Source of the DNA: Bacteroidales bacterium
GTDB lineage: Bacteria > Bacteroidota > Bacteroidia > Bacteroidales > JAIOZK01
Direction of reading: 5' to 3'
Assembly (NCBI GenBank): GCA_021740625.1
Contig: JAIOZK010000004.1
Span: forward strand, 100,316-164,315
DNA length: 64,000 nt
This document shows positions 11,216-46,612 of the stretch, piece after piece. Under the pieces are notes generated by a model. The model did no database searches and was not told the DNA's origin. It saw nothing but the letters and a program-made list of their open reading frames with translations. The position numbers and the translations under genes are program-made. The first letter of the stretch is position 1, and each line of letters opens with the position of its first letter.

Positions 11216-11390
11216 TCAGCTATTTTTCGAAACTTCACAACTTCATTTTTTGAAACGGCAAACTTTAAAAGACTGACTTATTATGATCACAATTTATCAC
11301 AATCCAAGATGCAAGAAATCCAGGGCAGGCCTGCAATACCTCGAAGACAAGGGGGTGGATTTTGAAATCAGGCAATACCTGAAAAAGCCC
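11216..11390 (+). repeat. Left copy of a 175-bp direct repeat (173/175 identical to 23062-23236)
   Basis: Base-by-base comparison finds mismatches only at 11230/23076 and 11348/23194. Confidence 0.95.
11283..11390 (+). pseudogene. Orphan 5' fragment (first 36 codons) of the ArsC/Spx-family gene
   Basis: MITIYHNPRCKKSRAGLQYLEDKGVDFEIRQYLKKP is identical to the start of the intact gene at 23129. It then diverges and stops at about 11460. Confidence 0.85.
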
Positions 11391-11622
11391 ATGAAAAGTA
11401 AGAAAATTGATAAGTATCTATTAATGTGCGGGATAGTTATATCCAGGAACATTAAAAAGTAGCGAAAATCGGACTTTTCTACCTCAATGTGTCCGCAAAA
11501 CAAAAAAATCATTTAAATTTGACTGTGCAGGAAATTAGTAACAGTTTTTTGTGACATCTGAAAGCGAAAAATGGTGACTTTATGGACACACTCTAACTTA
11601 TATACTATTGACTAGTTTTTCG

Positions 11623-13629
11623 ATGAGGTGGGTTTCTGGAATATTATTTTTCTTTCTCTTCCTATTGAGTATTGCAGCATATGCACAATATTCAGAACAA
11701 GAAGAAATTGACAGTTTGCAAAAATTGTTGAAAATAGTTCCCGCCGACCTTAAACCAGAAGTACTTATTAAAATCTCAAAAAAACTTGAAAAGGATAGCA
11801 ATCGTCTTGCTGAAGGTTATGTAAGGAAAGCACTTGAAATATCCTTGCATAATGAGAACATTGCTGATATTGCAAGATGCAGATACCAATTGGCACGCAT
11901 TAAAATACTGCAAGATTCAACAGTGATAGCCAAATCGATACTTAACAAATTGATCAGGGAAATAAACTCCCTTATGGTTGATAATGAGTATTTGGAAAAA
12001 ACTCTGAATCATTACCTGGGTTCATCTTACTTAATGCGATCGTATCTTTACTCGCAAAATTCACATGATAGTCTTAAAGCATCGATTTTGGATTTACAAA
12101 AGGCCCTCGCAAAATTGGATAAAAATCAGGACCCTTTTCTTTTTGCCCTGGCCAGTGGGCTTATAGCCGATTACTACTTACAGCTTGATATTTCAGATCA
12201 TGGCATAAAAAACTATAATCTGTCTCTAATGCTTTACGATTCAATTTCCGAAAAGTATTTCCTATTGCCTGTTTTGATTGAAAAAGAAAAAAAAAGATTT
12301 GATATTTTAAAAAACTATCGACAAGAATGCCTGTTTTGTGAGAATATCATAGAAGCTGATTTCAGAAGTAAAATTAAAACAAATTTGGGCTTTGCTCATT
12401 TAAAAGATGGACATCATCAGATCTCGCTTAGCTATTTTAAACAGGTTTTTAAAGATGCCATACAAGATAAAGACCGGCAACTGCGAATTTGCGCCTCAAT
12501 AAATCTGGCTTTATTCCATATGAAAACCGGGCAATATGATGAGGCAGAGAATCATTTATCCAATGCTATAGTCATTGCACGTGAAGAAGGCTTTCACAAT
12601 TTGGAAACACAAGCCAGCTTGAACCTGGTTGATGTATACCTTGCAACACAGAAATACGATCTTGCTCAAAACATGCTAAGCACCATCAATTCAATAATTA
12701 ATACAAATGATTTCAATTGTCTTTTATCGAATTACTATACCAAATTAGGGGATCTGTACTTTGAGCTTGACAATAGGGCAAAAGCACTGGAATGCTACAA
12801 AAAAACATTTGATTCACTTGTGGAAAATAGAAATTTCTATTATCAGGCTTTATTGGCAAACAAAATTCACAGTATTTACGAGCAAAGAGGTGATTACAGC
12901 AAAGCCATGAAATATTACAAGCTGTATATTACTGCAAATGATGCTCTTATTTCCTTTCAGGATAAGACATCCATTATTAAAGAAGAGATCAGGCTGGAAA
13001 TTGATAATGCAGAATCGGAATTGGGAATAATGAGAAAAAATGAGAAACTAGCCAGACTTGAGTTGAAGCGCCGAAATTTTTTAGCTACTGCTTTTTCTAT
13101 TGGTTTTGCCGTATTCTGCCTGCTTTTATTCTTTATCTGGATGTTGCGCACTAGAAAGAAAAAAGCATACAATAAGCTGATGGAAAAAAACATTGCGCTT
13201 TTGAAATCATCAGAAAACAACAAAAAGACCAAAAACGATACCGGAAAGAATTCTGATATAAATCCTGAACTGGCTTCAGAGCTAAAAAAAGGCTTCGAAA
13301 AATTCATCTACCAGCAAAAGATCTATCTTAAACCAAATATTTCTCTTGATTCATTGGCAAAAAAACTTAACACAAACTCAAACTATTTGTCCAGATATAT
13401 TAATCAAACTTATCAAACAAACTTTACCGGATACCTCAATCAACTCAGGATCAGGTATGCACAAAATTTGGTGACAAAGAAGGAGTTCCAAAATTTCTCC
13501 ATAGAAGGTTTGGCCAAAGAAGTAGGTTACAAATCAAAATCAGTTTTCAATGTTGCTTTTAAGAAATATACAGGTGTAACACCCTCATTTTATATTAATT
13601 ATATCAAAGATAAAGAAGCAAAGAAATGA
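11623..13629 (+). CDS. Transmembrane one-component regulator: N-terminal signal/anchor, TPR-like repeats, coiled coil, TM helix, C-terminal AraC-type HTH (module A, regulator 1)
   Basis: The ORF runs 11608-13629; the likely start is ATG 11623 (MRWVSGILFFFLFLLSIAAYAQ). There is a TM segment FLATAFSIGFAVFCLLLFFIWML. The C-terminus LSRYINQTYQTNFTGYLNQLRIRYAQNLV...GYKSKSVFNVAFKKYTGVTPSFY is an AraC/XylS HTH. Confidence 0.85.
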   Translation: MRWVSGILFFFLFLLSIAAYAQYSEQEEIDSLQKLLKIVPADLKPEVLIKISKKLEKDSNRLAEGYVRKALEISLHNENIADIARCRYQLARIKILQDSTVIAKSILNKLIREINSLMVDNEYLEKTLNHYLGSSYLMRSYLYSQNSHDSLKASILDLQKALAKLDKNQDPFLFALASGLIADYYLQLDISDHGIKNYNLSLMLYDSISEKYFLLPVLIEKEKKRFDILKNYRQECLFCENIIEADFRSKIKTNLGFAHLKDGHHQISLSYFKQVFKDAIQDKDRQLRICASINLALFHMKTGQYDEAENHLSNAIVIAREEGFHNLETQASLNLVDVYLATQKYDLAQNMLSTINSIINTNDFNCLLSNYYTKLGDLYFELDNRAKALECYKKTFDSLVENRNFYYQALLANKIHSIYEQRGDYSKAMKYYKLYITANDALISFQDKTSIIKEEIRLEIDNAESELGIMRKNEKLARLELKRRNFLATAFSIGFAVFCLLLFFIWMLRTRKKKAYNKLMEKNIALLKSSENNKKTKNDTGKNSDINPELASELKKGFEKFIYQQKIYLKPNISLDSLAKKLNTNSNYLSRYINQTYQTNFTGYLNQLRIRYAQNLVTKKEFQNFSIEGLAKEVGYKSKSVFNVAFKKYTGVTPSFYINYIKDKEAKK

Positions 13630-15644
13630 AGATTGCTTTCAGGCTTTCGTTTATTAAAAAACTTTTATGCAATGTTCTTTGTGTAATGATTATTTCATTG
13701 CTGTCTGGAAAAACACAAAATAACAAAAGTCTGCAATATACTTCGGATAGTTTACTCAGACTTTCCAACCTGGTTCAGAATGATCTCAAGCCTGAAGTTT
13801 ACATTGAACTATCTGACCTTTTTCTCGACTCTGATCCGGCCAGGAGTGACAGCTTTGCACTACTGGCTATGGATTGGGCCCAATATAACAAAAACCTTCA
13901 TGATCAATTAAAAAGCCAATTTCAATTAGGCAAAATAAAATACAGGCAGCAAAATTTTATGGCGTCGAAAGATATTTTCAGGGAATGGATTGTACGATTT
14001 GGTTCTGCAAACAAAGAATTAAGGAAATCAACATTATTAATGAAAAAGCATGCAGAAGCAAACATATATCTGGCTGACATTCTTGGTAGAAATTCTGACA
14101 GTCTTTCAACTGCCATTGGGTACTCATTTTCATGCAATGAAATAGCAAAGAATATTCAGGATTCCTTTCTAATTGCAAGAAGTTGCTATTCCATTGGTGA
14201 GATTTCACGTAAATTATTTATGGTTGAAAGGGCCAATAAATACTTTATTAAATCAGCAGAAATATTTGAGAACCTTAAGTTGGAAGAGTATTTAACTAAG
14301 GCATATTATGGTTTGGCCTTAAATGACCGAGAAAATCTGGAGTATATTTACAAAACCTTACGGCAATATGAGAAGCTTGGAGACTCCGCCGGTATGGGAA
14401 ATTTCCTTGTTAGTATTGCCTATATTTCAGCATCGGTAGTAAGTTTTGAGGAAGCTGTTGCTTATTATGAAAAGGCATTTGAAATCTTCAGAAAAATCAA
14501 AAACACAAGAGGCCAGGCCCATGCCAGATTCAATCTGGCCGGGCATTATCACCGCAATGGATATTTAGAAAAGGCATTGAACCTAAACGAGGAAAATGTT
14601 AAGTTTTGCCTGGAAAATAATGATAAGCTTTTTTTGGCCTATAGCCTGAAAGATCTTGCAAACGAGCATAATTTACTTGGCAGAAGAGATTCGGCCTACT
14701 ATTACTATTCAATTCTCGACACTGTTTCCAATAAGCTTGGAAATCGCACTCCTTATGTGAGATATTTATGTGGTTATGCACGTTTGCGATGGTTCGACGG
14801 CAAACATAAAGAAGCCTTAAAGTATCTCGATAAAGCAAGCCAGGAAATTGAAAAACATGGTGTTTATTATTTCAGAAGAAAAGTTGCGAGCTACCGGTCT
14901 AAAGCATATGCCGGATTGGGAGATTACGAAAATGCACTCAAATTTTACAAAAGGAGTATACATGTAAGAGATTCATTTTTTAGCCGAACCAGAATGGATA
15001 AATTAACATCACAGCAAATTAGGTATGAGGCAGAAGAAATACTAAGCGAGCTGGAAATGCTGGAAAAAGATCAAGCTTTGAAAAAGGCTGAAATAAAACA
15101 AAAGAAACAATTTGCTTCTTTTTTGGGATTGGGTATGATAATGGTACTCTTGCTTGGACTTTATGTGGTATCTCAATATAGAAAAACCAGGCTTGCATAT
15201 AACAGTCTTATGGAAAAGAACTTGAAACAGCTTGATGAAAAAAAACCCCGGCATATAAACGGGATTAATAATGGGTTGAATGAAAAAATCTTTAGGGAAA
15301 TCCAGGAATCTCTAAAAAAATGTATCAGGCAAAAAGTTTTTCTCCAACCTGATATCAGTTTAAAAAAATTAGCAAAGCTGATGAAAACCAACTCAGCCTA
15401 TTTATCAAAATTCATTAATTTGAAATATGCCAAAAACTTTACAGCCTTTATAAATGAACTTAGAATAGCTGAAGCGCAGAAACTTCTGAATAAGGATGAG
15501 TTTCAGAATTATACTGTTGAAGGAATAGCACAAGAGGTAGGCTTTAAAACAAAATCTGTCTTTAATACGGCTTTTAAAAAGAATACTGGTGTTACACCTT
15601 CATTTTATTTCAATTATCTGAAAGAAAAAAAGACAAAAACTTGA
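13626..15644 (+). CDS. Transmembrane TPR-AraC one-component regulator (module A, regulator 2)
   Basis: 672-aa ORF whose start overlaps the upstream stop (ATGA). It has a TM segment FASFLGLGMIMVLLLGLYVV and a C-terminal AraC HTH (GFKTKSVFNTAFKKNTGVTPSFY). Confidence 0.85.
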   Translation: MKIAFRLSFIKKLLCNVLCVMIISLLSGKTQNNKSLQYTSDSLLRLSNLVQNDLKPEVYIELSDLFLDSDPARSDSFALLAMDWAQYNKNLHDQLKSQFQLGKIKYRQQNFMASKDIFREWIVRFGSANKELRKSTLLMKKHAEANIYLADILGRNSDSLSTAIGYSFSCNEIAKNIQDSFLIARSCYSIGEISRKLFMVERANKYFIKSAEIFENLKLEEYLTKAYYGLALNDRENLEYIYKTLRQYEKLGDSAGMGNFLVSIAYISASVVSFEEAVAYYEKAFEIFRKIKNTRGQAHARFNLAGHYHRNGYLEKALNLNEENVKFCLENNDKLFLAYSLKDLANEHNLLGRRDSAYYYYSILDTVSNKLGNRTPYVRYLCGYARLRWFDGKHKEALKYLDKASQEIEKHGVYYFRRKVASYRSKAYAGLGDYENALKFYKRSIHVRDSFFSRTRMDKLTSQQIRYEAEEILSELEMLEKDQALKKAEIKQKKQFASFLGLGMIMVLLLGLYVVSQYRKTRLAYNSLMEKNLKQLDEKKPRHINGINNGLNEKIFREIQESLKKCIRQKVFLQPDISLKKLAKLMKTNSAYLSKFINLKYAKNFTAFINELRIAEAQKLLNKDEFQNYTVEGIAQEVGFKTKSVFNTAFKKNTGVTPSFYFNYLKEKKTKT

Positions 15645-15750: not shown

Positions 15751-15861
15751 TTTGCTCATGAAGTAGGATACAAAAGCAAATCGGTTTTCAATTCAGCTTT
15801 TAAAAAATATACCGGTCTCACACCTTCGTTTTACCTAAATTATTTGAAAGAAAACCAATGA
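15751..15861 (+). pseudogene. Remnant of a third AraC-type regulator (last 36 codons only)
   Basis: Translates to FAHEVGYKSKSVFNSAFKKYTGLTPSFYLNYLKENQ*, matching the C-termini of the four neighbouring regulators. No upstream ORF precedes it. Confidence 0.8.
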
Positions 15862-15929
15862 ATTTTTCACCAATTTTCCGTCAGGTGAGCACACATTGAT
15901 ATCTATTGTATGTTATTGTTATACTGGAA

Positions 15930-15978
15930 TTTACGCCTGTTTAAATTCATAAATCCATACATCAAAAACTTGATTTTG
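15930..15978 (+). promoter_or_regulatory. Conserved promoter-proximal motif, copy 1 (candidate operator)
   Basis: TTTACGCCTGTTTAAATTCATAAATCCATACATCAAAAACTTGATTTTG is shared with 22298-22340 (-) and 30899-30938 (-). Confidence 0.6.
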
Positions 15979-15993
15979 CACATTTCAGTATCC

Positions 15994-16001
15994 TACTTTT
16001 A
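15994..16001 (+). promoter_or_regulatory. -7-like box (TACTTTTA) for the module A structural operon
   Basis: Near match to TAnnTTTG, about 21 nt downstream of the TTG inside the conserved motif and 43 nt upstream of the ATG at 16044. Confidence 0.4.
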
Positions 16002-16043: not shown

Positions 16044-16613
16044 ATGCAGAATCACAAGTACATATTTCTACTTTTCATTGTAGCAACGATATGTGCTTGT
16101 GATCTGCATTTAATACCTGAAAACAAATACCTTGGGAAATTACCAGGAATTGCAGCACGATATAAGCATGAAATAAATCAGCTTAAGAACGAAGCCGAAG
16201 CCACAGACGACTTGAACAAGGCATACAAACTGATGAAGCATGCAGAAAAAAAAGAAAAACAGGCAAACCGGGAAATTGAACAAAACTGGGAATTAATGTC
16301 AAAACCTGTCAACTTGGCTTTTGAGCAAAAATCAATGGGTGAATTTGAAATTACCGGTTTAAAAATTTCTGAAGCGAAATACAATTACCTGGTTCTTGTA
16401 GCCACAGCCATTATTAAAAAAGGTAATACTCGTTTATTTGCCAATATAGTTGCCATCGATAAAAACGGAAAAACCCTGGGTGAATCATCGGTACTAATTT
16501 CAGAAAGAAATCCAAAAAAAGGAAAAGAGTGCAGTTTTTATGGGAGTTTGAAAAACCTTGATCAATTAAGTAATTTCAGAAAAATCAGATTCTTTAAAAA
16601 GCAAAAGCCCTGA
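16044..16613 (+). CDS. Hypothetical lipoprotein (189 aa); no counterpart in module B
   Basis: Lipobox-like VATICAC, a charged coiled-coil-like N-terminal half and a beta-rich C-terminal half. Confidence 0.7.
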   Translation: MQNHKYIFLLFIVATICACDLHLIPENKYLGKLPGIAARYKHEINQLKNEAEATDDLNKAYKLMKHAEKKEKQANREIEQNWELMSKPVNLAFEQKSMGEFEITGLKISEAKYNYLVLVATAIIKKGNTRLFANIVAIDKNGKTLGESSVLISERNPKKGKECSFYGSLKNLDQLSNFRKIRFFKKQKP

Positions 16614-16671
16614 AATCATGAAAAATAACCAAAACCAATATTAATATAAATCAAACTAAAATTTTAAAATT

Positions 16672-17082
16672 ATGAAAAAATTAAACATTTTATTCGGGAC
16701 ATTAATTGCAATTTCAATCCTTTTTTTTGCTGCCTGTGGCGGTGGCGGAGCCTCAGGAAATTCTCCCTCGGGAGTGGTAGACGAATATTATGATGCATTC
16801 CAATCAGGTGACTATGAAGGCATGGTTATGCTGTTTGAAGGCAGTGAATCCTTATCAGCCGACAAAATCAAAAAGAATGCTGAGATGTTCAAAATGGGTG
16901 AATCCCAGTTAGAAGCCAGGGGAGGTATCAAAAAATTCACAGTAACTGAAGAAGAAATCAATGATGCCGGTGATGCCGCCACATTAAAAATTAAAACCAT
17001 TTATGGAAATGGAGATGAAGCTGATTCGGAAATGAATCTGGTGAAAGTGAATGGCAAATGGAAATTTAAAAAGATGTTCTAA
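16672..17082 (+). CDS. Small lipoprotein, DUF4878-like (NTF2-like fold suspected)
   Basis: 136 aa with lipobox FFAACGGGG, GVVDEYYDAFQSGDYEGM near the N-terminus and VKVNGKWKF at the C-terminus. It is roughly 70 percent identical, by eye, to the product of 30418-30828. Confidence 0.8.
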   Translation: MKKLNILFGTLIAISILFFAACGGGGASGNSPSGVVDEYYDAFQSGDYEGMVMLFEGSESLSADKIKKNAEMFKMGESQLEARGGIKKFTVTEEEINDAGDAATLKIKTIYGNGDEADSEMNLVKVNGKWKFKKMF

Positions 17083-17100
17083 GCATTGCTTTGTTATAAA

Positions 17101-17134
17101 AGGGTGCGGGAAATTCTATTCTGCACCCTCTTTT
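17101..17134 (+). terminator. Hairpin plus T-tract after the DUF4878-like gene (possible attenuating terminator within the operon)
   Basis: AGGGTGC...GCACCCT followed by CTTTTAAA. Confidence 0.4.
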
Positions 17135-17147
17135 AAACAATAATTTT

Positions 17148-19034
17148 ATGCTGAAAAAGAAACATTACATATTATTTTTGAGTTTTATCCTTTGTGCATT
17201 TCTACCTCTGACGCAAAACAAAGCACAAAATATATGCTCTTACCGGGTTAACACCAACTTACACATTTATCAGATTGAAGGCTATGCTGCCAAAATCGAT
17301 CTTTCCCTAAATCCGCTTACTTACCCCGACACCATGAAAATAAACATCGTACAACACGATCCGGATGGAGAAGAATTGCTTGTAAAATCCTGGATCATTT
17401 ATCAAAAAGAAGAAATTAATGAATTCAATAAATCCACCCAAATACTGGTTTTTGAGGATATTGGTGGATCATTGAAAGCTTACGATAGCTGGAGGGCTTA
17501 TCAAAGCGGACTAAATGGAAAACAATTAATCAGGTGGGAAAAAAAGTCTTTCAGTGTGGAACTCAACATGACGGGTTATTTTACTGCCGACCTCTACCTG
17601 CTCAAAAATAACTCCTCATATAAAATTGCCGACAACTGGTTTCGCATTATCAGAAACAGCAATGGAACCGAAAAAAAGCCCTTGCTGGTGTCGAGCCAAT
17701 ATCTTTATATGATCGGAGATAGTGTAAAAGTTCATTATGCGTATTCTGATATGCCAAAGAACGCCATCATCAGGGTATACAAATACAATAAAGATGGCAA
17801 TGTTAAATATTACAAACGTGTAGCAAAAGGAAACAATTCATTCGAACTTTACAAGACGAATGTATCAGGAAGCGGTGATGGGACTTTCACCTTTTATCAG
17901 GCCGGCAACTTCGAAATCCGAGCTTACTTTTATAGTGATGATCCAAAAACAGTAGTGGCCGGTGAAAGATTTTACATCATGGAAAATCATCTTGCAGGAC
18001 ATGATATTCCGTACATTTCAACTTGTAAATATGTGAATACCATCACAGATGAGGACAATAGAATTAGGGTGATTTATAAAGGTTTTTCCGAAAATCCACT
18101 TGCAACTGTCCAAATGCAAAAATCAAAAGGGAATGGCGACAGTAAAACACTTGCCCATCAATTGCTTGGTGGAAAAGGAAAAACATATTTTAATTTACAT
18201 GGACCCGGAATTTACGAACTCAAAGTGTATTTTGAACAGGATAAAAAATACATAAGGACTGGTTGCAGGTTCTATGTTGAGCCTATACCAGGAACCCACA
18301 CTCCAAAGCCACGGGAAGACAAAAACGAGATTCCGAATTATACAGAGGCAATTCCAATTATTGAACCGGATTTTCCAACTTACTGTTTAAACGATGTAAT
18401 CAGAATGAATTACCACAGCCTTCCTCCCGGAAATAAGACAATTGAGCTTTTTTCGGGTCCGGATAGAGTTCAACTAAAATCTATCATTGAAAAAAATGGA
18501 TCCATCAGGTATTTAAACCTTAAGGAAGGGGTTTATAAAATGAATATTGTCGATTATAAAGGAAATCATATTACCCACAAAGAATTCAAAGTTTTTGATT
18601 GTAACAACGCACCTGAAAAGATAATTGAAACAAATCCAAAACAAAAACCCGAAATACCGGCATTTGATTGTCCTATGGTACACGACAACCAAATTCCTGC
18701 AAAAAGCTTTGCCAAAGAATTCATGCATTATTTTTATAATGATCACATTTGCTATTTGCAGGCAGGAATGGGCTTTGAGGCGTACAACAAGCTTTCAGAC
18801 AAAGAAAAGGAGCAATCACTTCAAATGGTCAAATTGCTGACACATAAAGTAAACACAAAATGGGGCGGACTGGATGAAATTATCAAAGTAAAAACATTGG
18901 AATCATCCAAAAACAAATATGTTTTTGAAATTATTATACGCTATAAGAATGGAAATACCGAAAAATTTGATGAGATAAGCGTTGAAAGGTATGGAAATTA
19001 TTGGCGGGGAAGCATGAATATAAAAGCATTTTAG
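17148..19034 (+). CDS. Secreted protein with about four Ig-like repeats and a C-terminal NTF2/DUF4878-like domain (628 aa); no counterpart in module B
   Basis: A signal peptide is followed by repeated blocks of about 90-110 aa that end in similar strands (FRIIRN, RFYIMEN, RFYVEP, FKVFD). The C-terminal 130 aa resemble the neighbouring small lipoprotein in pattern. Confidence 0.75.
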   Translation: MLKKKHYILFLSFILCAFLPLTQNKAQNICSYRVNTNLHIYQIEGYAAKIDLSLNPLTYPDTMKINIVQHDPDGEELLVKSWIIYQKEEINEFNKSTQILVFEDIGGSLKAYDSWRAYQSGLNGKQLIRWEKKSFSVELNMTGYFTADLYLLKNNSSYKIADNWFRIIRNSNGTEKKPLLVSSQYLYMIGDSVKVHYAYSDMPKNAIIRVYKYNKDGNVKYYKRVAKGNNSFELYKTNVSGSGDGTFTFYQAGNFEIRAYFYSDDPKTVVAGERFYIMENHLAGHDIPYISTCKYVNTITDEDNRIRVIYKGFSENPLATVQMQKSKGNGDSKTLAHQLLGGKGKTYFNLHGPGIYELKVYFEQDKKYIRTGCRFYVEPIPGTHTPKPREDKNEIPNYTEAIPIIEPDFPTYCLNDVIRMNYHSLPPGNKTIELFSGPDRVQLKSIIEKNGSIRYLNLKEGVYKMNIVDYKGNHITHKEFKVFDCNNAPEKIIETNPKQKPEIPAFDCPMVHDNQIPAKSFAKEFMHYFYNDHICYLQAGMGFEAYNKLSDKEKEQSLQMVKLLTHKVNTKWGGLDEIIKVKTLESSKNKYVFEIIIRYKNGNTEKFDEISVERYGNYWRGSMNIKAF

Positions 19035-19092
19035 CAGAATATAATATGGAAACGAAATACAATTTAATCATTAATCCCTAAAATCAATAATT

Positions 19093-19593
19093 ATGAAAAA
19101 ACATGCATTATTAAGTCTATCACTAATCGTTGTGTTTTGCTTTGCTTTCCTGGGCAGCGAAGCTATGCCGGAAAACGACAAACAGGTTCAGGTAAAGATC
19201 ACAAAAGTGGAAAGAAATGGAAAAGAGGTTATCGTCCATTTCCAATTAAAAAACACCGGAGATCCAATTGATCTGGCACTCAAGAACAATGATGGAAGCT
19301 ATGCTCTTGGAAAAAACGGTCGCAAGTACAAACTTAAAAAGCTGGTTATTGGAAACCAGAAATCGAGCAGGCTTGTGGGCAAAAGAAGCCAAAAACTAGA
19401 TAAAAACAAATCAATTAATGGTATGGCAATTTTTGACGTTCCGGATGAAACAAATGATTTTAAAGAGATAAAGATCTCAAGCAAAAACAAGTTTTCAGCC
19501 AAATTTAAAAATGTTAAAACCAAGGACAAAAAGCCTTCGCCTTCAAAGCGATTTAAACCCAGTTCAAAAAAGCTGGAAAAACCAAGAAAATAA
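19093..19593 (+). CDS. Small secreted/lipid-anchored beta-sandwich protein (DUF4352-like, tentative) with a lysine-rich tail
   Basis: 166 aa with a signal peptide, VQVKITKVERNGKEVIVHFQLKNTG and a C-terminal K/P/S-rich tail. Paralog of 29717-30217. Confidence 0.75.
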   Translation: MKKHALLSLSLIVVFCFAFLGSEAMPENDKQVQVKITKVERNGKEVIVHFQLKNTGDPIDLALKNNDGSYALGKNGRKYKLKKLVIGNQKSSRLVGKRSQKLDKNKSINGMAIFDVPDETNDFKEIKISSKNKFSAKFKNVKTKDKKPSPSKRFKPSSKKLEKPRK

Positions 19594-19620
19594 TTTAATA
19601 TTAACCTAAACCAAATTTCA

Positions 19621-20142
19621 ATGGAAAAAAATGAAACAATTAAATCGGTAACAATGATTTTATCCGGATCGCTCCTTCAGATGTTTAACGGGATTGGTAA
19701 TGGATGGATTTCAACGCTAACTGCCATATTCGGCTTAATACTGCTGTTTATGGGATTAAGTAAACTTAAAAGAGGCATTGATGAAGCCGGGCAGGGTGCT
19801 GTAAAATTGCTTATCATTGCGGCAGTGCTTGGTATCATCGGTTTGATCCTTGATCTGATCCCATTGGTAGGCATCGTGGCCTCAATCGTCTTTATCGTCG
19901 CATTTATTGTACAATTAATTGGTGTATTAAAGCTGAAAAAATCAGAAACCATCGGTGAATCGGGTAAAAGTGGTGTAACCTTACTCCTAATTGCCATGAT
20001 ATTGGCAATTTTACAAAGTATAGTGGGCTTTGTTCCTTTTGCCGGTGGAATAGTGGCTGGAATTATTTCGCTGGTGGCCCTCATACTTTTGTTTTTCGGG
20101 TGGCTCAGAATTCAGGATGGAATTATCATCAATAATCCCTAA
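19621..20142 (+). CDS. Small polytopic membrane protein (173 aa, about 5 TM) with an internal two-helix duplication
   Basis: Roughly 85 percent aa identity, by eye, to the product of 29167-29688 despite heavy synonymous divergence. Internal repeat: LSKLKRGIDEAGQGAVKLL... versus VLKLKKSETIGESGKSGVTLL... Confidence 0.85.
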   Translation: MEKNETIKSVTMILSGSLLQMFNGIGNGWISTLTAIFGLILLFMGLSKLKRGIDEAGQGAVKLLIIAAVLGIIGLILDLIPLVGIVASIVFIVAFIVQLIGVLKLKKSETIGESGKSGVTLLLIAMILAILQSIVGFVPFAGGIVAGIISLVALILLFFGWLRIQDGIIINNP

Positions 20143-20210: not shown

Positions 20211-21101
20211 TTAAAAACCAAGTTCTTTTATGAGTTTCTTGGCACCACTATCTTCCAGAGAAATGCATATCAATTCTTTCCCCGCTTCAAAAGATTGAAA
20301 TATTTCTTTTTCACCGTCATTTACTTTACAATTTGAAAAATTTTCACCTTCAACATTCAATACGGTAACTTTCCCAATTTCTTTTTCGCGCCTCATTCCG
20401 GCCAAAATTGAAACTTCCACAACTTTAAATTTATCACCTTTGTTAATTCCAAATTTTTCTCCAGCGGCAATCAGAACCTCTCTCGCTTTATCTCTTTTCT
20501 CATCGGTTATTTCAACAAGCAAAATGTCCAAAGGAAAATATCTTTGGATAAATATTTCCACTTTGTAATCCAGCGATTTTAAATAATCAAGCAAAGCTTC
20601 ATTGTATGATTTTTCGCTGTAGCCGGTTTCTTTAATGACCTCTGTTCCGATTATGCTACTATCGGCGACATTTATTGCGGTAATGACAAACTGCATACCA
20701 ACCTGATATTGGGTATACGTTCGTTCTCCTCCGCCGATTTGTTTGGAAGTAACGTTTTTACTATCTGTAATGATCCCTGTAATATCGCCCTTAATAATGT
20801 AATCAGCTCCCAAAGATTTTAAAACCTCATACCGGCTAAAGGTATTTACTTCCAGAGTGTCATTCTCTTTCTGAGCCAGAGCATTCTCTAGCGCATCTTC
20901 CATGACCTTTTTTTCAATCACATTGAATCTGTTGGTTTTGATAAAGGCATTGTAAACTGCTTCCCGCAGTTTCTGTCCAACCTCTGCCGGAATATTTTCA
21001 TCCCACCCAAACTTATCGATTGCGAGGTTTTCTTTTTGAGTTTGGGCATTCAGGGGAACAATGAAAAAAATCACCCATGTAAATAATAATAACTTTCTCA
21101 T
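20211..21101 (-). CDS. Periplasmic protein with a CsgG/LpoB-like N-terminal domain (tentative)
   Basis: 296 aa with a signal peptide. The pattern IDKFGW...LREAVYNAFIKTNRFNVIEKKVMEDALE resembles CsgG/LpoB-type domains. The C-terminal half is beta-rich. Confidence 0.65.
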   Translation of the reverse strand: MRKLLLFTWVIFFIVPLNAQTQKENLAIDKFGWDENIPAEVGQKLREAVYNAFIKTNRFNVIEKKVMEDALENALAQKENDTLEVNTFSRYEVLKSLGADYIIKGDITGIITDSKNVTSKQIGGGERTYTQYQVGMQFVITAINVADSSIIGTEVIKETGYSEKSYNEALLDYLKSLDYKVEIFIQRYFPLDILLVEITDEKRDKAREVLIAAGEKFGINKGDKFKVVEVSILAGMRREKEIGKVTVLNVEGENFSNCKVNDGEKEIFQSFEAGKELICISLEDSGAKKLIKELGF

Positions 21102-21142
21102 AATGTTATGTTTTGGTTTTGGTTATTTTGGATCTCAATTCA

Positions 21143-22225
21143 TTAATAGAAATAGTTTCTCCAAATATAAGTGAATATTGTGGAGATAAAGTGCTCAGAT
21201 GCATCAAAATCTGAGGTCAATCGAAGGCTGATGTCCGGATCAACAAATTCCTGACTTTGTTGATCTTTAATATATACTTTGCAAGTCCTGACACCCATTG
21301 CGTCATCGGATTTCAACTCCTGCATTTTAACCACCACCAGAACATCTTCTTTCTCAATATTTCCAGGTTTAACCGGATTTGGAACATTGGGGTTGGTCAT
21401 ACCTTGTTCTACCATCTCGATTTCATTAAGAATAGCGGCAATATTTTCACGCTCCAACACCTTCAAACCGGGAATTTTAGAAAACATGCGTGTTAATTTT
21501 GCTTGAATTCCCTTCAAAAGACTTTGGCATCTATTATCATCCTCACATCCATCTATGATTACGGCAACTGCATCCCGTTCAGGCTTTTCAGCAGTATAGT
21601 GTGTTGGTGTAATATTTACATGTATGCATTGAGTCCTGTTGTTAAATTTATCTCTATCAACCCCAACCATATGTTGTACAGTGGTTTTGCTAACTGCCCG
21701 CCAAACAAGATGTTCAAGTTTGTCCCAGGTTACACTGTTTATTATGGTTTCCTCGGGATTTGAGCGGTATCGTCCTCCCTTATACGGGATATTCTCAAAG
21801 CTGCAGGAAGCAATTTTCATTTCCTCTACATGTGCTTTTTCCCTGTTTGGAACACTGTATCTTACATAGGAATAATCGATATCGATGTTATTAATGCTTT
21901 TGCGGTCTTCTGAAAGCGTACCATAAAAAGAAGCAATCTCCTCTGCTACTGACTGCTTATTTATTTTCATTCCACTAAAATCATTGCCATCAAGACGCAT
22001 GTCATTCACACTAAAATAAAAGCCAAGGACTGTATTATATTCATCCCGAATTTTCCTGACATTTCCGTTACTGAACTTTTTTGTCTTAACTATTTCTTTC
22101 ACTTTTGACGGTACACTAACCGTAATATAACATTTTCGAAATTCAGCTTGAGCGAATCCATAGATTTGAAAAAAAAATGCATTTAAGAAAATCAAAGTGA
22201 ATAAAAATCGGAATTGTGTTTTCAT
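21143..22225 (-). CDS. Secreted hypothetical protein with a C-terminal CsgG-like segment (tentative)
   Basis: 360 aa with a signal peptide. AVAVIIDGCED...KIPGLKVLERENIAAILNEIEMVEQG resembles the CsgG-family core motif. Confidence 0.65.
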   Translation of the reverse strand: MKTQFRFLFTLIFLNAFFFQIYGFAQAEFRKCYITVSVPSKVKEIVKTKKFSNGNVRKIRDEYNTVLGFYFSVNDMRLDGNDFSGMKINKQSVAEEIASFYGTLSEDRKSINNIDIDYSYVRYSVPNREKAHVEEMKIASCSFENIPYKGGRYRSNPEETIINSVTWDKLEHLVWRAVSKTTVQHMVGVDRDKFNNRTQCIHVNITPTHYTAEKPERDAVAVIIDGCEDDNRCQSLLKGIQAKLTRMFSKIPGLKVLERENIAAILNEIEMVEQGMTNPNVPNPVKPGNIEKEDVLVVVKMQELKSDDAMGVRTCKVYIKDQQSQEFVDPDISLRLTSDFDASEHFISTIFTYIWRNYFY

Positions 22226-22268: not shown

Positions 22269-22276
22269 CAAAATTA
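22269..22276 (-). promoter_or_regulatory. -7 promoter box (TAATTTTG on the minus strand) for the 22225-20211 operon
   Basis: Exact TAnnTTTG match 43 nt upstream of the start at 22225, downstream of conserved motif copy 2. Confidence 0.5.
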
Positions 22277-22297
22277 CATATTCAGAAAGCTTCAATA

Positions 22298-22340
22298 CAA
22301 ATATTTGTTGTATGAATTTATGAATTTAAACAAGCGTAAA
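22298..22340 (-). promoter_or_regulatory. Conserved promoter-proximal motif, copy 2
   Basis: The minus strand reads TTTACGCTTGTTTAAATTCATAAATTCATACAACAAATATTTG, matching copy 1 at most positions. Confidence 0.6.
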
Positions 22341-22569: not shown

Positions 22570-22606
22570 AATTAAAACAAAAACACACCCTTGCTGGCGT
22601 GTGTTT
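22570..22606 (-). terminator. Intrinsic terminator downstream of the acyltransferase remnant
   Basis: The minus strand reads AAACACAC-loop-GTGTGTTT followed by TTGTTTTAATT. Confidence 0.55.
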
Positions 22607-22688: not shown

Positions 22689-22929
22689 TTAAGTTAAGCC
22701 CGTTCCGTTTTCAACATTTTTCACAAGCTCATAAATATACCTGGCCATATCCGCACCGTCAACAACATCATGATCCATTAAAACTGTCATGTTCATGATA
22801 TCTCTTATCTGGATTTGTTTGCCAATTACCCTGGGTTTTTGAATGAACCGGTTCCAGAAAACTGCTCACATGATGTTTGCGCTTACCCATTTCGCAAACA
22901 TCAATGCTTACAATGCGGGAGGCAGGGAA
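22689..22929 (-). pseudogene. 3' remnant of a 2-oxoacid dehydrogenase E2-type acyltransferase-like gene, frameshifted
   Basis: The minus strand encodes ...VIGKQIQIRDIMNMTVLMDHDVVDGADMARYIYELVKNVENGTGLT*, which carries the DHxxxDG catalytic motif context. The upstream part (VSIDVCEMGKRKHHV) is in another frame, and no N-terminal two thirds is present. Confidence 0.5.
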
Positions 22930-23061: not shown

Positions 23062-23236
23062 TCAGCTATTTTTCGTAACTTCACAACTTCATTTTTTGAA
23101 ACGGCAAACTTTAAAAGACTGACTTATTATGATCACAATTTATCACAATCCAAGATGCAAGAAATCCAGGGCAGGCCTGCAATACCTCGAAGATAAGGGG
23201 GTGGATTTTGAAATCAGGCAATACCTGAAAAAGCCC
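23062..23236 (+). repeat. Right copy of the 175-bp direct repeat
   Basis: See 11216-11390. Confidence 0.95.
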
Positions 23237-23470
23237 CTGAGCAAAGATGAATTGAAAAGCTTGCTGACCAAAATGAACAAAAAACCCCATGACATCATCC
23301 GCACGCAGGAGGAAAAGTACCGCAAGGAGTTGAAAGGAAAGAATTTTTCGGATGAGGAATGGATCAGCATCCTGGTGGAGAACCCCAAACTGATGCAACG
23401 ACCCATCGTGGAAAAAGAATACAAGGCTGTCCTTGCCCAGCCACCCGAAAATATTGACGAACTTCTATAA
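23129..23470 (+). CDS. ArsC/Spx/YffB-family protein (arsenate reductase-like thioredoxin fold)
   Basis: 113 aa. The N-terminal IYHNPRCKKSR carries the conserved Cys context, and PKLMQRPIV is also present. Confidence 0.85.
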   Translation: MITIYHNPRCKKSRAGLQYLEDKGVDFEIRQYLKKPLSKDELKSLLTKMNKKPHDIIRTQEEKYRKELKGKNFSDEEWISILVENPKLMQRPIVEKEYKAVLAQPPENIDELL

Positions 23471-26163: not shown

Positions 26164-27732
26164 TCACTCAATAGCCAGCGAATCCGGCACCTCTTTCTTA
26201 AGTCCTTTCAAGTGGTAAACAAAAACATACTTCACTACCTCACCGCCTCTTTCAATGGCAATGGTATCAGCTGGTATGATCTCCGTGAAATAATCATGAT
26301 ACAGATCTTCGGGATCTTTGAAGTCCCTGCTGGAGGTCAGGAAATAAGCATCCATGCCCTGCCGGAAACCACCCCGGATCCTGTTGATCCAGGCATATTT
26401 GTGAATACGTTCCAGTTCGCCAATGGCCAGCATGCGGATCTTCAAAGGCCGGGCAACATAATAATCCAGGTTGGCTGCAGGGAACCACCTGAAAGAGATC
26501 ATCACGGCATTTGAATCCATGCGGCCTTCTTTTAGATCGCTTTCATAGATCGGTTCAAATTTTTTCCTGAGTTGATCCCAGCCATACATATCCAAGGTCA
26601 CGTCATCTTTGCCCAGTTCAATGTCTTCGCTTACTTTTGGAGGCAAAAACCAGCCACCTTTGATTTGGGCTGTTCCGACAAACAAAATAATCAACAATAA
26701 ATACAAAGGAAGCTGCAAGGGCCAGGGGAATAGGCTCCCCTTCTTTTCCAGACGGGAGGCAAAATAGGTGGCAGCAATGATGATCAGTCCCAGATAGCCG
26801 GGGCCTGTCCAGTGGGGGAGGGTTCTACGAAAAAGAGCAAAAACAAGGAAAAGCAGGATGAGCGGCAGGCTGTTCCACAGTAAAAATCTTTTGTATTTGG
26901 ATGGGATGAAATTGCGTCCGGCTATCAAAGCCACCAGGGCAATCATGATTAAAACAAAGTTGATGGGATTGTTATATAGGATCTGTCCACCCAGTTCCTG
27001 GAAGAAATAATCTGGCTTTATACCCGATTCACTCATATTAACACGCTCGCTCTGGAAACTAAAACTGATGAAATCATTTTGAAAGTTCCAAACGATCACA
27101 GGAATAAAAATGAACAGTGAAATGAGCATAGATATATAAAGCTCTTTGGTTTTCAGCCAGCGGCGGTTGTATAGCAAAATGAATGCGATGGTTCCAAACC
27201 ACAGGAAAACCGTGGTATATTTGCTGAGCATGCCCAGCCCCAAGGTGAGCCCGGCCAGGAGGAGGTTGGTCTTTGTAAAACGGTTGGCCACTTTATAGGT
27301 AACCGAAGTGGTGAGAAAATAAAGACTCAGCAGCCAGAAAAGCAATTGCGGGGTGTCGGGCAAAATGAAGGTCCCTGCAATGATAAAACAATAAATAGAA
27401 GCCGTGAACAGAACCGCAGCATAAAAACCTGCCAGGGAATTCTTTATACGCGTGGTGATCACATAGATAAGCCAGGTATTCATGGCTCCGAACAATATGG
27501 AAGCCAGCCGCAAAAAGAATTCATTTTCAAAAATGAGGTTGAGGGTAAATGCCTGTATGATAAAACCCACCATGGGTGGATGGTCGAAATGGCTCAGGTC
27601 GGGGTAGAGGGCATAGGTCCAGTAATATACCTCATCGTTTCCCAGCTCCAGAAAGCCTGCCAGGAAAGCCCTGACCAGCGTGGAAATCAGGATCAGGTAA
27701 AAAAGGTTTACGTATATCTTTTTTTCATCCAA
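26164..27732 (-). CDS. ArnT/PMT-like membrane glycosyltransferase (GT39/GT83-like)
   Basis: 522-aa polytopic protein with N-terminal ELGNDEVYYW and DHPPMVGF motifs. Confidence 0.8.
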   Translation of the reverse strand: MDEKKIYVNLFYLILISTLVRAFLAGFLELGNDEVYYWTYALYPDLSHFDHPPMVGFIIQAFTLNLIFENEFFLRLASILFGAMNTWLIYVITTRIKNSLAGFYAAVLFTASIYCFIIAGTFILPDTPQLLFWLLSLYFLTTSVTYKVANRFTKTNLLLAGLTLGLGMLSKYTTVFLWFGTIAFILLYNRRWLKTKELYISMLISLFIFIPVIVWNFQNDFISFSFQSERVNMSESGIKPDYFFQELGGQILYNNPINFVLIMIALVALIAGRNFIPSKYKRFLLWNSLPLILLFLVFALFRRTLPHWTGPGYLGLIIIAATYFASRLEKKGSLFPWPLQLPLYLLLIILFVGTAQIKGGWFLPPKVSEDIELGKDDVTLDMYGWDQLRKKFEPIYESDLKEGRMDSNAVMISFRWFPAANLDYYVARPLKIRMLAIGELERIHKYAWINRIRGGFRQGMDAYFLTSSRDFKDPEDLYHDYFTEIIPADTIAIERGGEVVKYVFVYHLKGLKKEVPDSLAIE

Positions 27733-27764: not shown

Positions 27765-28964
27765 CTAAGCTTTTTTCAAGGATTTCCAGCCCCATCGGAT
27801 CAAAAGAAATGCAAGGAAAAGGTAAATCATGATGGCAAACATCCTGTATATCCAGGTCTTGGTATAGTTTATTTTTGCCTTTACTTCACTTCCTGGTGTG
27901 TGCGTTTCGTATCTCACCACCGGGTTCAGGTAGAATACATTCATGTTGGGAAAATGGATTTCGGTCCTGATATAGGTATCTTCCGCTTGTATGATATAAG
28001 ATCCTATTTCCTGATCCATAACTTCTTTTTTGATCTCCCCCTCCTGTCCGATGAATTTGATGCGGCTGGCTTTCCTGTCGAGAGTGATTTTCAGGGTATC
28101 TCCGTATAGCCTGGCTTCCTCAAGCCGTCCAATGTTGTTGTGTTTTTCTTTCCTGGTTTCCCAGTCATCGCCCAGGTAACGAAAAACATTCACAGCATAG
28201 GTCCTGTTCCTGTCAATGGCGTCCACCACACTATCGCCATGCAGGCTGGCCGTATTGATGTAGGTACAATACTGTCCCACCTCATCCGGGTTGGTGATGT
28301 CGTGTACATCATCATTCCCGATGGCTGCTACATAATGACCACTGGAAAGGGCCGTATCCCAGTGATAGACAGACTCACAATAAAAATTCAGGATCTCCAT
28401 GGCATTATATCCACTGAGCTTTTTTAAGTCTGATGTTTCGTAACCGTTCCGCAGGCAAGGGTGTGCCAAAATGACTACATCCGCTTCTTTCCGGAGGGTG
28501 TTGATCACTTTCTGTTTTTGATTGGGCGTTTGCCAGAAAAAATAGTCCAGCCAGTTCACTTCATCCGCACCCAGCACGATCTGGTGGACTTTAAAAATAC
28601 TCCATCCATGTTCATAGATGGAGATGAATGTTGGTTTATTCTCATGATACAAATTGATCTGCATATAATCCGAAGTACCGATAATATCGTAGTCCAGGAA
28701 TTTATATGTGCTGTCGATCATTTCATTGGTGTTTTTCCTGCCATCTGTAATGCCGCCCCAGATACGCGATTGCACCTGGAAGTTCCCTTTTTGCCAGTGA
28801 GTGGGATTCAGATTCTGGTATGGGTTGTAAAGCTTCCCACCTGTAAAAGGTTCAGGTTCAGGAAAATCATACACAGGGTTAAACAAATAAGGGATCAGCA
28901 GCAGCATGATCACGATTGTAAACACCCATAAAAAGGCCTTAACAAGTATTCTGAAAAATTTCAT
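27765..28964 (-). CDS. Hypothetical protein with TM segments at both ends; possible PHP-type metal-dependent phosphoesterase-like core (weak)
   Basis: 399 aa. ADVVILAHPC...AAIGNDDVHD resembles PHP-domain motifs. It probably shares an operon with the glycosyltransferase. Confidence 0.6.
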   Translation of the reverse strand: MKFFRILVKAFLWVFTIVIMLLLIPYLFNPVYDFPEPEPFTGGKLYNPYQNLNPTHWQKGNFQVQSRIWGGITDGRKNTNEMIDSTYKFLDYDIIGTSDYMQINLYHENKPTFISIYEHGWSIFKVHQIVLGADEVNWLDYFFWQTPNQKQKVINTLRKEADVVILAHPCLRNGYETSDLKKLSGYNAMEILNFYCESVYHWDTALSSGHYVAAIGNDDVHDITNPDEVGQYCTYINTASLHGDSVVDAIDRNRTYAVNVFRYLGDDWETRKEKHNNIGRLEEARLYGDTLKITLDRKASRIKFIGQEGEIKKEVMDQEIGSYIIQAEDTYIRTEIHFPNMNVFYLNPVVRYETHTPGSEVKAKINYTKTWIYRMFAIMIYLFLAFLLIRWGWKSLKKA

Positions 28965-29166: not shown

Positions 29167-29688
29167 TTATGAATTATTGATGATAATACCATCCTGGATT
29201 TTTAGCCATCCGAAAAATACCAGGATCAGGGCTATGAATGAAATAATTCCGGCAATAATACCACCTGCCAGGGGAACAAAACCGAAAATACTCTGAATAA
29301 TTGCCAGGATCATGGCAATGAGTAGCAGGGTTACCCCACTTTTTCCGCTTTCGCCGATGCTTTCGGAACTTTTCAGCTTTATCACACCTATCAATTGAAC
29401 GATGAAAGCAGCGATAAATACGATAGAAGCCACAATGCCAATCAGCGGGATCAGATCGAGGACGAGGCCAATGAGACCCAAGATAGCAGCTATGATCAGC
29501 ATCTTAACCGCAGCTTGTCCTTTTTCATCGATGCCCTTTTTGAGTTTACTCAGACCCATGAAAAACAGAATCAATCCGAAAATGGCTGTCAAGGTGGAAA
29601 TCCATCCGTTACCAATGCCATTGAACATTTGTAAGAGCGAACCCGATAAAATAAAGGTTACTGATGTAATTGTTTCTTTTTTTTCCAT
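29167..29688 (-). CDS. Small polytopic membrane protein, paralog of 19621-20142 (module B)
   Basis: 173 aa, same length as its paralog, with roughly 85 percent aa identity by eye. Confidence 0.85.
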   Translation of the reverse strand: MEKKETITSVTFILSGSLLQMFNGIGNGWISTLTAIFGLILFFMGLSKLKKGIDEKGQAAVKMLIIAAILGLIGLVLDLIPLIGIVASIVFIAAFIVQLIGVIKLKSSESIGESGKSGVTLLLIAMILAIIQSIFGFVPLAGGIIAGIISFIALILVFFGWLKIQDGIIINNS

Positions 29689-29716
29689 TGTAAATTTGGT
29701 TTAGGTTAATATTAAG

Positions 29717-30217
29717 TTATTTTGTCGATTTATCCACTTTGGTTGAACTGGGTTTGATTTGTTTTTTAGGCACAGGTGTTTTATTATGTGTTTTTACATT
29801 TTTAAACTGGGCAGTAAATTTATCCTTACTATATATCCTGACCAGTTTAAACTCGTTGATGTCGTCGGGAACGTCAAAAATAGCTTTGCAAGATACTTCC
29901 GCGTTTTTGGCTATTTTATTACTGCTTCGACCCACAAGCCTGCTCGACTTTTTGTGCCCCACTTCAATTTTTTTGGTTTTGTACTTTTTGCCGTTTTTCC
30001 CAATCAGATAGCTCTGATCGTTCAGCGGAATCTTTAGCTCAGCCGGTTCACCGGTATTTTTAACCTTGAAATGAACAATGACTTCTTTGCCATGTCGTTC
30101 AACTTTTGTTACCTTAACCTGGAAATTTTTATCATTGTCCGGTTTGTCTGCATTGGCAAATAAGGACAAACAAATCATTACAGCAAGTACACTGACTAAT
30201 AATGCATGTTTTTTCAT
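29717..30217 (-). CDS. Small beta-sandwich (DUF4352-like, tentative) protein with a K-rich tail, paralog of 19093-19593
   Basis: The likely start is MKKHALLVSV at 30217 (the ORF track extends to 30259). FQVKVTKVERHGKEVIVHFKVKNTG parallels the module A copy. Confidence 0.75.
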   Translation of the reverse strand: MKKHALLVSVLAVMICLSLFANADKPDNDKNFQVKVTKVERHGKEVIVHFKVKNTGEPAELKIPLNDQSYLIGKNGKKYKTKKIEVGHKKSSRLVGRSSNKIAKNAEVSCKAIFDVPDDINEFKLVRIYSKDKFTAQFKNVKTHNKTPVPKKQIKPSSTKVDKSTK

Positions 30218-30417
30218 AATACTGGTTTTAAAATTAATAAAATTAATATATATTGACACCCATAATATTTTTTTTCTCTGAATTTTTTACATTGCTTTCA
30301 TATCCAGACTTCCCCTTCAAAATTCCTACATTTGATTATTTATGTTTTTAAATGTCTCAGGATCAAAGCAATGGCAGGCTGAAAAAGAGATATATCCGTT
30401 TCAACCTGCCTGGATTA

Positions 30418-30828
30418 TTAAAATAACTTTTTGAACATCCATTTGCCGTTCACCTTTACCAGCTCCATTTCCGACTCTTCCTCACTATCGTCTTTATAGA
30501 CCGTTTTGATTTTCACGATTGCGGCATCACCAGCATCATCAATGTTTTCTTCAATTACACTGAATTTCTTGATGCCACCGGTTGCTTTTTTCTGGGCTTC
30601 AACACCCATTTTGAGCATTTCAGCATTCTTCTTTACTTTATCGGCTGAATAGTTTTCAGAGCCTTCGAAAAGCATGATCATACCTTCGTAATCACCTGAT
30701 TGGAAGGCATCATAATAAGCCTCAACAACTCCGGAAGGGGAGCTACTGCTGCTTCCGCCTCCACAGGCTGCAAAAAATAAGATTGTAACTGCTACAGTTA
30801 GTCCCAGTAAAATGTTTACTTTTTTCAT
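30418..30828 (-). CDS. DUF4878-like small lipoprotein, paralog of 16672-17082
   Basis: 136 aa with lipobox FFAACGGGS, YYDAFQSGDYEGM and VKVNGKWMF. Confidence 0.8.
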   Translation of the reverse strand: MKKVNILLGLTVAVTILFFAACGGGSSSSSPSGVVEAYYDAFQSGDYEGMIMLFEGSENYSADKVKKNAEMLKMGVEAQKKATGGIKKFSVIEENIDDAGDAAIVKIKTVYKDDSEEESEMELVKVNGKWMFKKLF

Positions 30829-30876: not shown

Positions 30877-30884
30877 TAAATGTA
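30877..30884 (-). promoter_or_regulatory. -7-like box (TACATTTA on the minus strand) for the module B structural operon
   Basis: Near match to TAnnTTTG, about 20 nt downstream of the TTG in motif copy 3. Confidence 0.4.
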
Positions 30885-30898
30885 GGTCCGCAGGAAAG

Positions 30899-30938
30899 CC
30901 AAATCAAGTTTTCCACGTTCGGATTTATAAATCTGTAC
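30899..30938 (-). promoter_or_regulatory. Conserved promoter-proximal motif, copy 3
   Basis: The minus strand reads GTACAGATTTATAAATCCGAACGTGGAAAACTTGATTTGG and shares ATAAATCC..AC.T..AAAACTTGATTT with copy 1. Confidence 0.55.
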
Positions 30939-31003
30939 GACTTTAAGTATATTGAAAAACAGTTTGTTATGCCTTGTATTCAAGGCTGTAGTTGATTGAG
31001 GTA

Positions 31004-45236: not shown

Positions 45237-45249
45237 GGAAAGTAGGTTT

Positions 45250-46552: not shown

Positions 46553-46612
46553 CCTTTTTAATGATTAATACCTTTTGAGAGAGAAAAGTCACGGAATATT
46601 CGAAAAAAATTT

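Follow-up and report, generated by a model that had tools for sequence, protein, structure and literature searches.

AraC at araI (I1-I2) and RhaS/RhaR at the E. coli rha promoters activate transcription through a pair of DNA-binding domains that covers ~40-50 bp reaching to or over the -35 element. These regulators are soluble, with 17-bp half-sites lying 21-33 bp apart (centre to centre), and the half-sites of RhaS and of RhaR are inverted. ToxT and Rns bring AraC-family domains to short, AT-rich, degenerate boxes that are arranged as direct or inverted repeats upstream of -35.

The hybrid two-component systems (HTCS) of Bacteroides are membrane-tethered, dimeric regulators with a C-terminal AraC-type domain that are encoded beside their target operons, and paired HTCS paralogs within one locus have been proposed to share a motif (PMC3878776; PMC11253607). 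The motifs predicted for HTCS are direct repeats with a period of ~21 bp (PMC3878776). In SusR-like regulators, a periplasmic sensor is joined through one TM helix to a cytoplasmic DNA-binding domain, by which adjacent operons are activated; the DNA-binding domain of SusR is reported to be unrelated to known families, and its predicted motifs consist of direct repeats with a spacing of 67 or 77 bp (PMC3878776).

Here, we describe a Bacteroidales locus that shares features with each of these systems. The window (the whole 64-kb stretch of DNA that was analysed, from a genome that we call W) holds two paralogous modules that face each other, A on the (+) strand and B on the (-) strand, each with a pair of sensor genes and an operon of structural genes. 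Three intergenic regions preceding structural operons carry a common block of sequence (sites 1 to 3). Scans of genome and metagenome collections found the module in only two further species, X (L001) and Y (L006/L007/L009-11), and it is of the B type in both. The genes of the two modules are:

11608-13629 and 13626-15644, (+) strand: sensor pair A1 and A2, with an ATGA overlap
16044-20142, (+) strand: operon A, encoding a 189-aa lipoprotein, a DUF4878 lipoprotein, a 628-aa protein with a DUF4878-like C-terminus, a DUF4352-like protein and a 173-aa membrane protein
20211-22225, (-) strand: convergent operon, encoding a 360-aa protein and a 296-aa LpoB/CsgG-like lipoprotein, and preceded by site 2
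29167-30828, (-) strand: operon B, encoding a DUF4878 lipoprotein, a DUF4352-like protein and a 173-aa membrane protein
35058-33019 and 33022-31004, (-) strand: sensor pair B1 and B2, with an ATGA overlap

All four sensors have an N-terminal signal/anchor segment (which in B1 falls under the hydropathy threshold and was read by eye from FVFIILMMF), a TPR region of ~470 aa, one TM at about residues 492-516 and, at the C-terminus, an HTH_18 domain of AraC type (E 1e-13 to 2e-17, with scores that exceed the Pfam gathering threshold). TPR families and HTH_18/HTH_AraC are the only Pfam domains in them, and each protein is predicted to consist of a periplasmic TPR sensor, a single TM and a cytoplasmic DNA-binding domain. 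In a comparison with the PDB, the closest solved structures are AraC domains of response regulators, a hybrid two-component system protein, ToxT and Rns. Proteins of this TPR-TM-AraC architecture (550-700 aa) are numerous in public data (139 clusters at E<=1e-30 in an exhaustive HMMER search, and at weaker scores thousands), and include seven independent full-length sensor relatives at 30-34% identity (P0009-P0015; HMMER). A literature search found no characterised TPR-TM-AraC member or operator.

How does this locus compare with the systems above? The position and extent of the block are like those at AraC araI and RhaS rhaBAD; unlike AraC, RhaS and RhaR, the regulators here are membrane-anchored, the promoter is of the Bacteroidota -33/-7 kind and the symmetry is that of a compact 22-26 nt dyad. 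The sensors are also like the Bacteroides HTCS in being membrane-tethered, having an AraC-type domain and adjoining their candidate targets, but they have a TPR sensor in place of Y_Y_Y/COG3292 and a dyad in place of a direct repeat, and HTCS membership was ruled out because the histidine-kinase and receiver domains are absent (Pfam). As judged from their sequence, the sensors have the one-component topology of SusR, and the distant sensor relative P0006 carries a faint TPR_SusR match; unlike SusR, they are of AraC type and the targets are not polysaccharide utilisation loci, and SusR membership was ruled out on the different DNA-binding domain and motif layout. The TPR and TM part of A2 aligns with FimS of Porphyromonas gingivalis (NCBIfam NF053520) at E 2.6e-17, although at 62 bits against a family cut-off of 600 and with an AraC HTH, not a histidine kinase, as the output domain. 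Unlike here, ToxT and Rns are soluble virulence regulators of Proteobacteria, and their site sequences share no similarity with the block. An AraC-type (HTH_18/HTH_AraC) regulator is encoded together with the candidate target operons, as the assignment of the block to the AraC/XylS sites requires.

We propose that the block is an operator bound by the adjacent, coupled pair of TPR-AraC sensors, upstream of -33 at three sigma-A-type promoters, a reading that we regard as evenly balanced. Binding by these sensors is the most likely role of the block, which would make it an ordinary kind of regulatory element serving a type of regulator that is unstudied.

The dyad element and the predicted promoters below it

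The earlier note on this DNA had placed the same block at 15930-15978 (+), 22340-22298 (-) and 30938-30899 (-), and all three strings read exactly as it gave them. A repeat search recovered the copies independently, with 88% identity between sites 1 and 2 over 43 nt and 80% between sites 1 and 3 over 35 nt. The sites and the promoters predicted beside them are:

15930-15969, (+) strand: 40-nt block of the A type at site 1, adjoining the -33 TTG; dyad core 15939-15960 (halves GTTTAAATTCA and TAAATCCATAC), centre between 15949 and 15950
15970-16001, (+) strand: predicted operon A promoter; TTG 15970-72, 21-nt spacer, TACTTTTA 15994-16001; predicted start ~16006; ATG 16044
22301-22340, (-) strand: 40-nt block of the A type at site 2, with its dyad core at 22331-22310 and the centre between 22321 and 22320
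22269-22300, (-) strand: predicted convergent-operon promoter; TTG 22300-298, 21-nt spacer, TAATTTTG 22276-269; predicted start ~22264; ATG 22225
30908-30939, (-) strand: site 3, B-type conserved block; dyad core 30938-30917 (halves GTACAGATTTA and TAAATCCGAAC), centre between 30928 and 30927
30877-30907, (-) strand: predicted operon B promoter; TTG 30907-905, 20-nt spacer, TACATTTA 30884-877; predicted start ~30872; ATG 30828

What is common to all copies is an imperfect 22-nt palindrome, GTNNNRATTYA/TRAATYNNNAC (the slash marking the centre). The core had been described as a tandem octamer, and this description matches sites 1 and 2 (7/8 and 8/8) but only 3/8 positions of site 3 (AGATTTAT / AAATCCGA); since the symmetry is present in every copy and the octamer repeat is poor in module B, the core is better called a dyad. 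The distal third of the block, TTTACGCYTGTTTAA, is common to sites 1 and 2 only, where the 40-nt block is symmetric about the dyad centre and its last base directly precedes the TTG. Two further regularities were considered and dropped, both being weak by eye: a continuation of the palindrome into the outermost 8 nt at either end of the block, and a 21-nt direct repeat within it (the 21-nt halves of site 1 share about 7/21 matches).

By three measures, the sites match better than chance predicts. The palindromic pattern GTNNNRATTYATRAATYNNNAC, with at most 1 mismatch, has 3 matches in 64 kb, all of them the three sites, where 0.05 are expected, and it matches once per module-B locus in every related contig. 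An 18-nt core pattern with at most 2 mismatches has 8 matches in the window against 0.96 expected; six of the eight are the three sites on both strands, each site being matched with an 8-nt offset between the strands. Finally, a weight matrix built from five sequences (sites 1, 2 and 3 and the orthologous sites in X and Y) scores the three sites at 31-38 bits, the next-best match in the window at 10.9 and the best among 20 shuffles at 15.2; the reverse strand of each site, at 16.8-25.2 bits, is also above the shuffle maximum. In the weight-matrix and pattern scans of the 64 kb, the motif is limited to the three intergenic regions preceding structural operons and, as had been stated earlier, it does not occur upstream of the regulator genes. 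Within the 64 kb and the four metagenome assemblies described below, the block is not a dispersed repeat: there are three copies in the window, all at predicted promoters, and the assemblies add none at 80% identity or above.

The consensus promoter of Bacteroidota is -33 TTTG / -7 TAnnTTTG (PMC7366714, PMC9723704), and the Bacteroidales origin of the DNA makes this the right frame for the locus. The block precedes a TTG and a TAnnTTT(G/A) box at 3/3 sites, as had been claimed, with spacers of 20-21 nt. From the presence at all three of the elements of a sigma-A promoter (a TAnnTTTG box, a TTG ~20 nt upstream and a sensible distance to the ATG), we infer a promoter at each; the box is an exact TAATTTTG at site 2 and TAnnTTTA at sites 1 and 3, and that of site 3 is kept in X and Y. 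With the box set at -12 to -5 (after PMC9723704), the 5'UTRs would be 38-44 nt long, the start sites being predictions because the locus appears in no RNA run searched. Over the whole window, the composite pattern occurs about as often as expected by chance (9 occurrences against 8.9), the three sites making up 3/9 of these, and this counts against the proposed reading. A sigma-70 promoter scan of the window was set aside as inapplicable to Bacteroidota and unenriched, and an ECF-type promoter at site 3 (GAAC...CGT) was ruled out since it is not conserved in X or Y.

The position of the dyad is fixed relative to these elements. In 5/5 sequences (sites 1-3, X and Y), the best or joint-best dyad centre precedes the first base of the TTG by 20 nt, and the last base of the 40-nt block directly precedes the TTG in all copies, the TTG itself being predicted from the consensus. 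The dyad centre would then be about 56 nt upstream of the predicted start, with the block at ~-76 to -37. The earlier note had put the core immediately upstream of the -33 region, where class II activators bind. This holds for the 40-nt block as a whole, which abuts the predicted TTG, but the dyad core stops 9 nt short of it, and for that reason the label 'class II' is only approximate. We conclude that the block is a genuine, conserved, promoter-proximal dyad element and a candidate operator.

Farther upstream of site 2 on the same strand are a terminator-like hairpin at 22583-22602 (-) and a second promoter-like pattern at 22732-22762 (-), and a related assembly annotates an ORF for a 51-aa 2-oxoacid_dh fragment at about 22689-22844.

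Conservation, copy number and genomic context

Between W and X, identity is 77-86% in coding sequence, 42% in the intergenic sequence farther upstream than the block, and 10% in the -33/-7 spacer, as compared with 84% for the block, 25/25 for its 25-nt core and 81% from the -7 box to the ATG. In species Y, the core has two changes. This pattern indicates purifying selection on the block in the module-B orthologs, in a footprint of only three species, two of which are close. Site 2 is without a cross-species comparator because the first gene after it (21143-22225, (-) strand), which encodes the 360-aa protein, is confined to this species: a search of 5.8 billion clustered proteins with the product found only itself. 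Protein searches returned 3 homologs of the DUF4878 lipoprotein and, for sensor B2, one ortholog and one relative at 26%. Nor is there a within-species footprint, as the sequence does not vary among the contigs of eight DNA runs.

In species Y, the sensors, motif and structural genes occur together while the genomic neighbourhood is different on both sides, and so the three move as one cassette. At every locus, the motif lies 66-110 nt past the stop codon of a sensor gene or of a sensor relic. The relic is a remnant of a third gene of the TPR-AraC sensor type between A2 and site 1, and a further element is found upstream of sites 1 and 2:

15751-15861, (+) strand: relic, the remains of a third sensor gene's 3' end (...EVGYKSKSVFNSAFKKYTGLTPSFYLNYLKENQ*), lacking an intact ORF
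15903-15917, (+) strand: second element TTATTGTATRTTATT, at site 1
22378-22364, (-) strand: partner of the second element, at site 2

The relic comprises the last ~36 codons (~110 nt), with in-frame stops upstream, and is 76-77% identical in nucleotide sequence to the 3' ends of A1, A2 and B2; as it is equally close to all three, the label 'B2-type' was rejected. Site 1 lies ~109 nt past the relic stop codon, and the equivalent distance in module B is 96 nt. The second element, which is present at sites 1 and 2 only, could be a second binding site or residual homology; its distance from the dyad is shorter at site 1 by 11 nt, or about one helical turn. Within it is a 10-nt-period repeat of TTATTGT.

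Could the likeness of the sites be mainly historical, the product of duplication or gene conversion, with generic AT-rich, UP-like or curved DNA being conserved and not a specific operator? The modules are paralogous and the block is AT-rich, the relic shows that site 1 derived from a module-type promoter, and the extra upstream sequence of sites 1 and 2, with its 11-nt indel, resembles residual homology, such that recent duplication or gene conversion could account for the likeness of these two sites. However, that likeness stops sharply at the edges of the block, and the -33/-7 spacer and 5'UTR cannot be aligned. Flanks at 10-42% identity between W and X against a 25/25 core, together with a dyad in which the substitutions between A and B are symmetric, are not what neutral descent explains. 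We therefore judge a historical origin improbable and retain the operator as the preferred reading.

Module A and the convergent operon lie within a stretch of 11.8 kb that is bracketed by a 179-nt direct repeat (11216-11394 and 23062-23240, 98% identical). In the right copy of the repeat, an ArsC-family gene (23129-23470) has its promoter and its first 37 codons, and the left copy is a truncated duplicate that points into sensor A1. The stretch looks like an inserted island, since it is missing from species X, where a syntenic contig carries the ArsC-family gene without the 11.8 kb beside it. In one metagenome, it was assembled as a separate contig of 11,746 bp, at a depth of 43.6 against 44.6 for module B.

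Sites 1 and 2 are 43-nt inverted repeats around a 6.4-kb segment, and might be recombination sites for an inversion or the ends of a mobile cassette: the inverted copies bracket exactly the two convergent operons, and the surrounding 11.8 kb behaves like an inserted island. We consider this very improbable. The island has no integrase, recombinase or transposase gene, site 3 has no partner and is nevertheless at the same promoter position in three species, and an inversion would change little, as each promoter would stay with the genes that it precedes. In four metagenomes, the contigs (from which rare variants may escape) show the arrangement of the window only, and one contig of 11.7 kb has both copies in it.

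Copy number was also assessed in four metagenome assemblies in which the organism is present at 5-44x. A 60-mer of site 1 recovers only sites 1 and 2, and a 60-mer of site 3 recovers only itself, at a threshold of at least 80% identity, which more diverged copies would escape. The locus of the distant sensor relative P0006 (L012) has no comparable motif, its best score being 10 bits and within the noise.

Candidate operator variants, sensor pairs and a proposed mechanism

The candidate operator occurs as two variants. The A-type variant (sites 1 and 2, which are identical at 21/22 core positions) has the left arm GT.T..ATT.A and the right arm T.AAT..A.AC, and the B-type variant (site 3) has GT.C.GATTTA and TAAATC.G.AC. 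Written as half-sites, module A has GTTTAAATTCA on the left and GTATG(G/A)ATTTA on the right, and module B has GTACAGATTTA on the left and GTTCGGATTTA on the right. At half-site position 4, the two arms agree, with T in the A type and C in the B type, and at position 5 the left arm has A and the right arm G in 5/5 sequences. The A type is found inside the 11.8-kb island that encodes the A sensors, and the B type beside the B sensors in three species.

One regulon across both modules had been proposed earlier, with the convergent operon as a member. The convergent LpoB/CsgG-like operon is indeed tied to module A, but there are two variants, A and B, and these argue for module-specific recognition and not for a single regulon. 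The modules are probably insulated from each other, given that each operator variant adjoins its own sensor pair. Overall identity between the A and B sensors is only 34-38%, with 27-33% for the periplasmic part and 60-67% for the DNA-binding domain; their recognition helices are very similar, which counts against a clear specificity for one variant.

What, then, might bind the dyad? We favour the sensors, because of the fixed geometry, the footprint, the restriction to promoters, the co-inheritance, the match between variant and sensor, and the lack of any other regulator gene in either module (Pfam). The link between sensor and operator is partly supported, by adjacency, co-inheritance and the variant-sensor match. 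Counting against binding by the sensors are the small number of comparators and the dyad itself, as a compact 22-nt dyad is atypical for AraC domains.

The dyad also fits another explanation, in which the dyad is the operator of a different, unlinked dimeric factor (a repressor or an activator) and the TPR-AraC sensors bind elsewhere or have other targets. A compact 22-nt palindrome with an AT-rich centre has the classical geometry of a dimeric HTH site, and is unlike the ~21-bp-period direct repeats predicted for the AraC-type HTCS of Bacteroides. Against this, the motif travels with the sensor genes both into the 11.8-kb island and into a new context in Y, the variant present agrees with the type of sensor, and the modules themselves contain no gene for such a regulator. 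With no more copies at 80% identity or above in the metagenome assemblies, an unlinked factor would serve these promoters only. On balance we find such a factor unlikely, and continue with the sensors as the preferred binders.

If the sensors bind the dyad, the TPR domains would sense a periplasmic signal, and the cytoplasmic AraC-type domains of the tethered pair (S1/S2), probably as a dimer, would then occupy the pseudo-palindrome centred at ~-56. The bound domains would recruit or stabilise RNA polymerase, and so may switch on, as opposed to repress, a small set of genes for envelope lipoproteins and a membrane protein. It is a matter of speculation that S1 and S2 form a heterodimer, which would fit both the asymmetry at position 5 and the coupled genes.

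More tentatively, and as a proposal that we would not yet favour, TPR-TM-AraC pairs of the S1/S2 type may represent an uncharacterised class of heterodimeric, membrane-anchored, one-component regulators of Bacteroidota that bind a dyad at ~-56, with operator variants that co-evolve with the sensor pair and so insulate duplicated or acquired modules driving near-identical cassettes of envelope proteins. Confirmation of binding at this locus would provide the first recognition rule for the TPR-TM-AraC architecture, and would illustrate how signalling modules can stay free of cross-talk after duplication. The locus is a compact and testable case, with two sensor pairs, three promoters and two variants that differ at symmetric positions. 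For now the wider impact is limited, as the genes served would be those for lipoproteins of the envelope and for a membrane protein of unknown function, in a rarely sampled lake and sediment lineage of Bacteroidales.

Structural genes and their surroundings

Between modules A and B, the structural proteins share 57-86% identity, which is comparable to W-X orthologs (50-89%). Operon B ends at a strong terminator-like hairpin (29143-29118). Within module B of W there is a 200-nt gap (30218-30417) where X (L001 10477-11676) and Y hold a gene for a 399-aa protein. The C-terminus of this protein shows homology with the module A protein of 628 aa (59/125 identical), and the gene looks to have been lost in the window genome.

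Past the module B terminator are genes for a membrane protein with a CehA/McbA-like metallohydrolase domain (27765-28964, (-) strand) and a PMT_2 glycosyltransferase (26164-27732, (-) strand). Both are kept in X but not in Y, and for this reason are probably outside the module.

Elsewhere in the window, 45249-47604 is occupied by non-coding tandem arrays. Rfam has no match anywhere in the window, these arrays included; they are built of 101-nt (and 208-nt) units that match at 85-97%, and each unit carries two GC-rich hairpins (GGGGCTGAAGCCCC, CCCCACGCTGAAGCGTGGGG).
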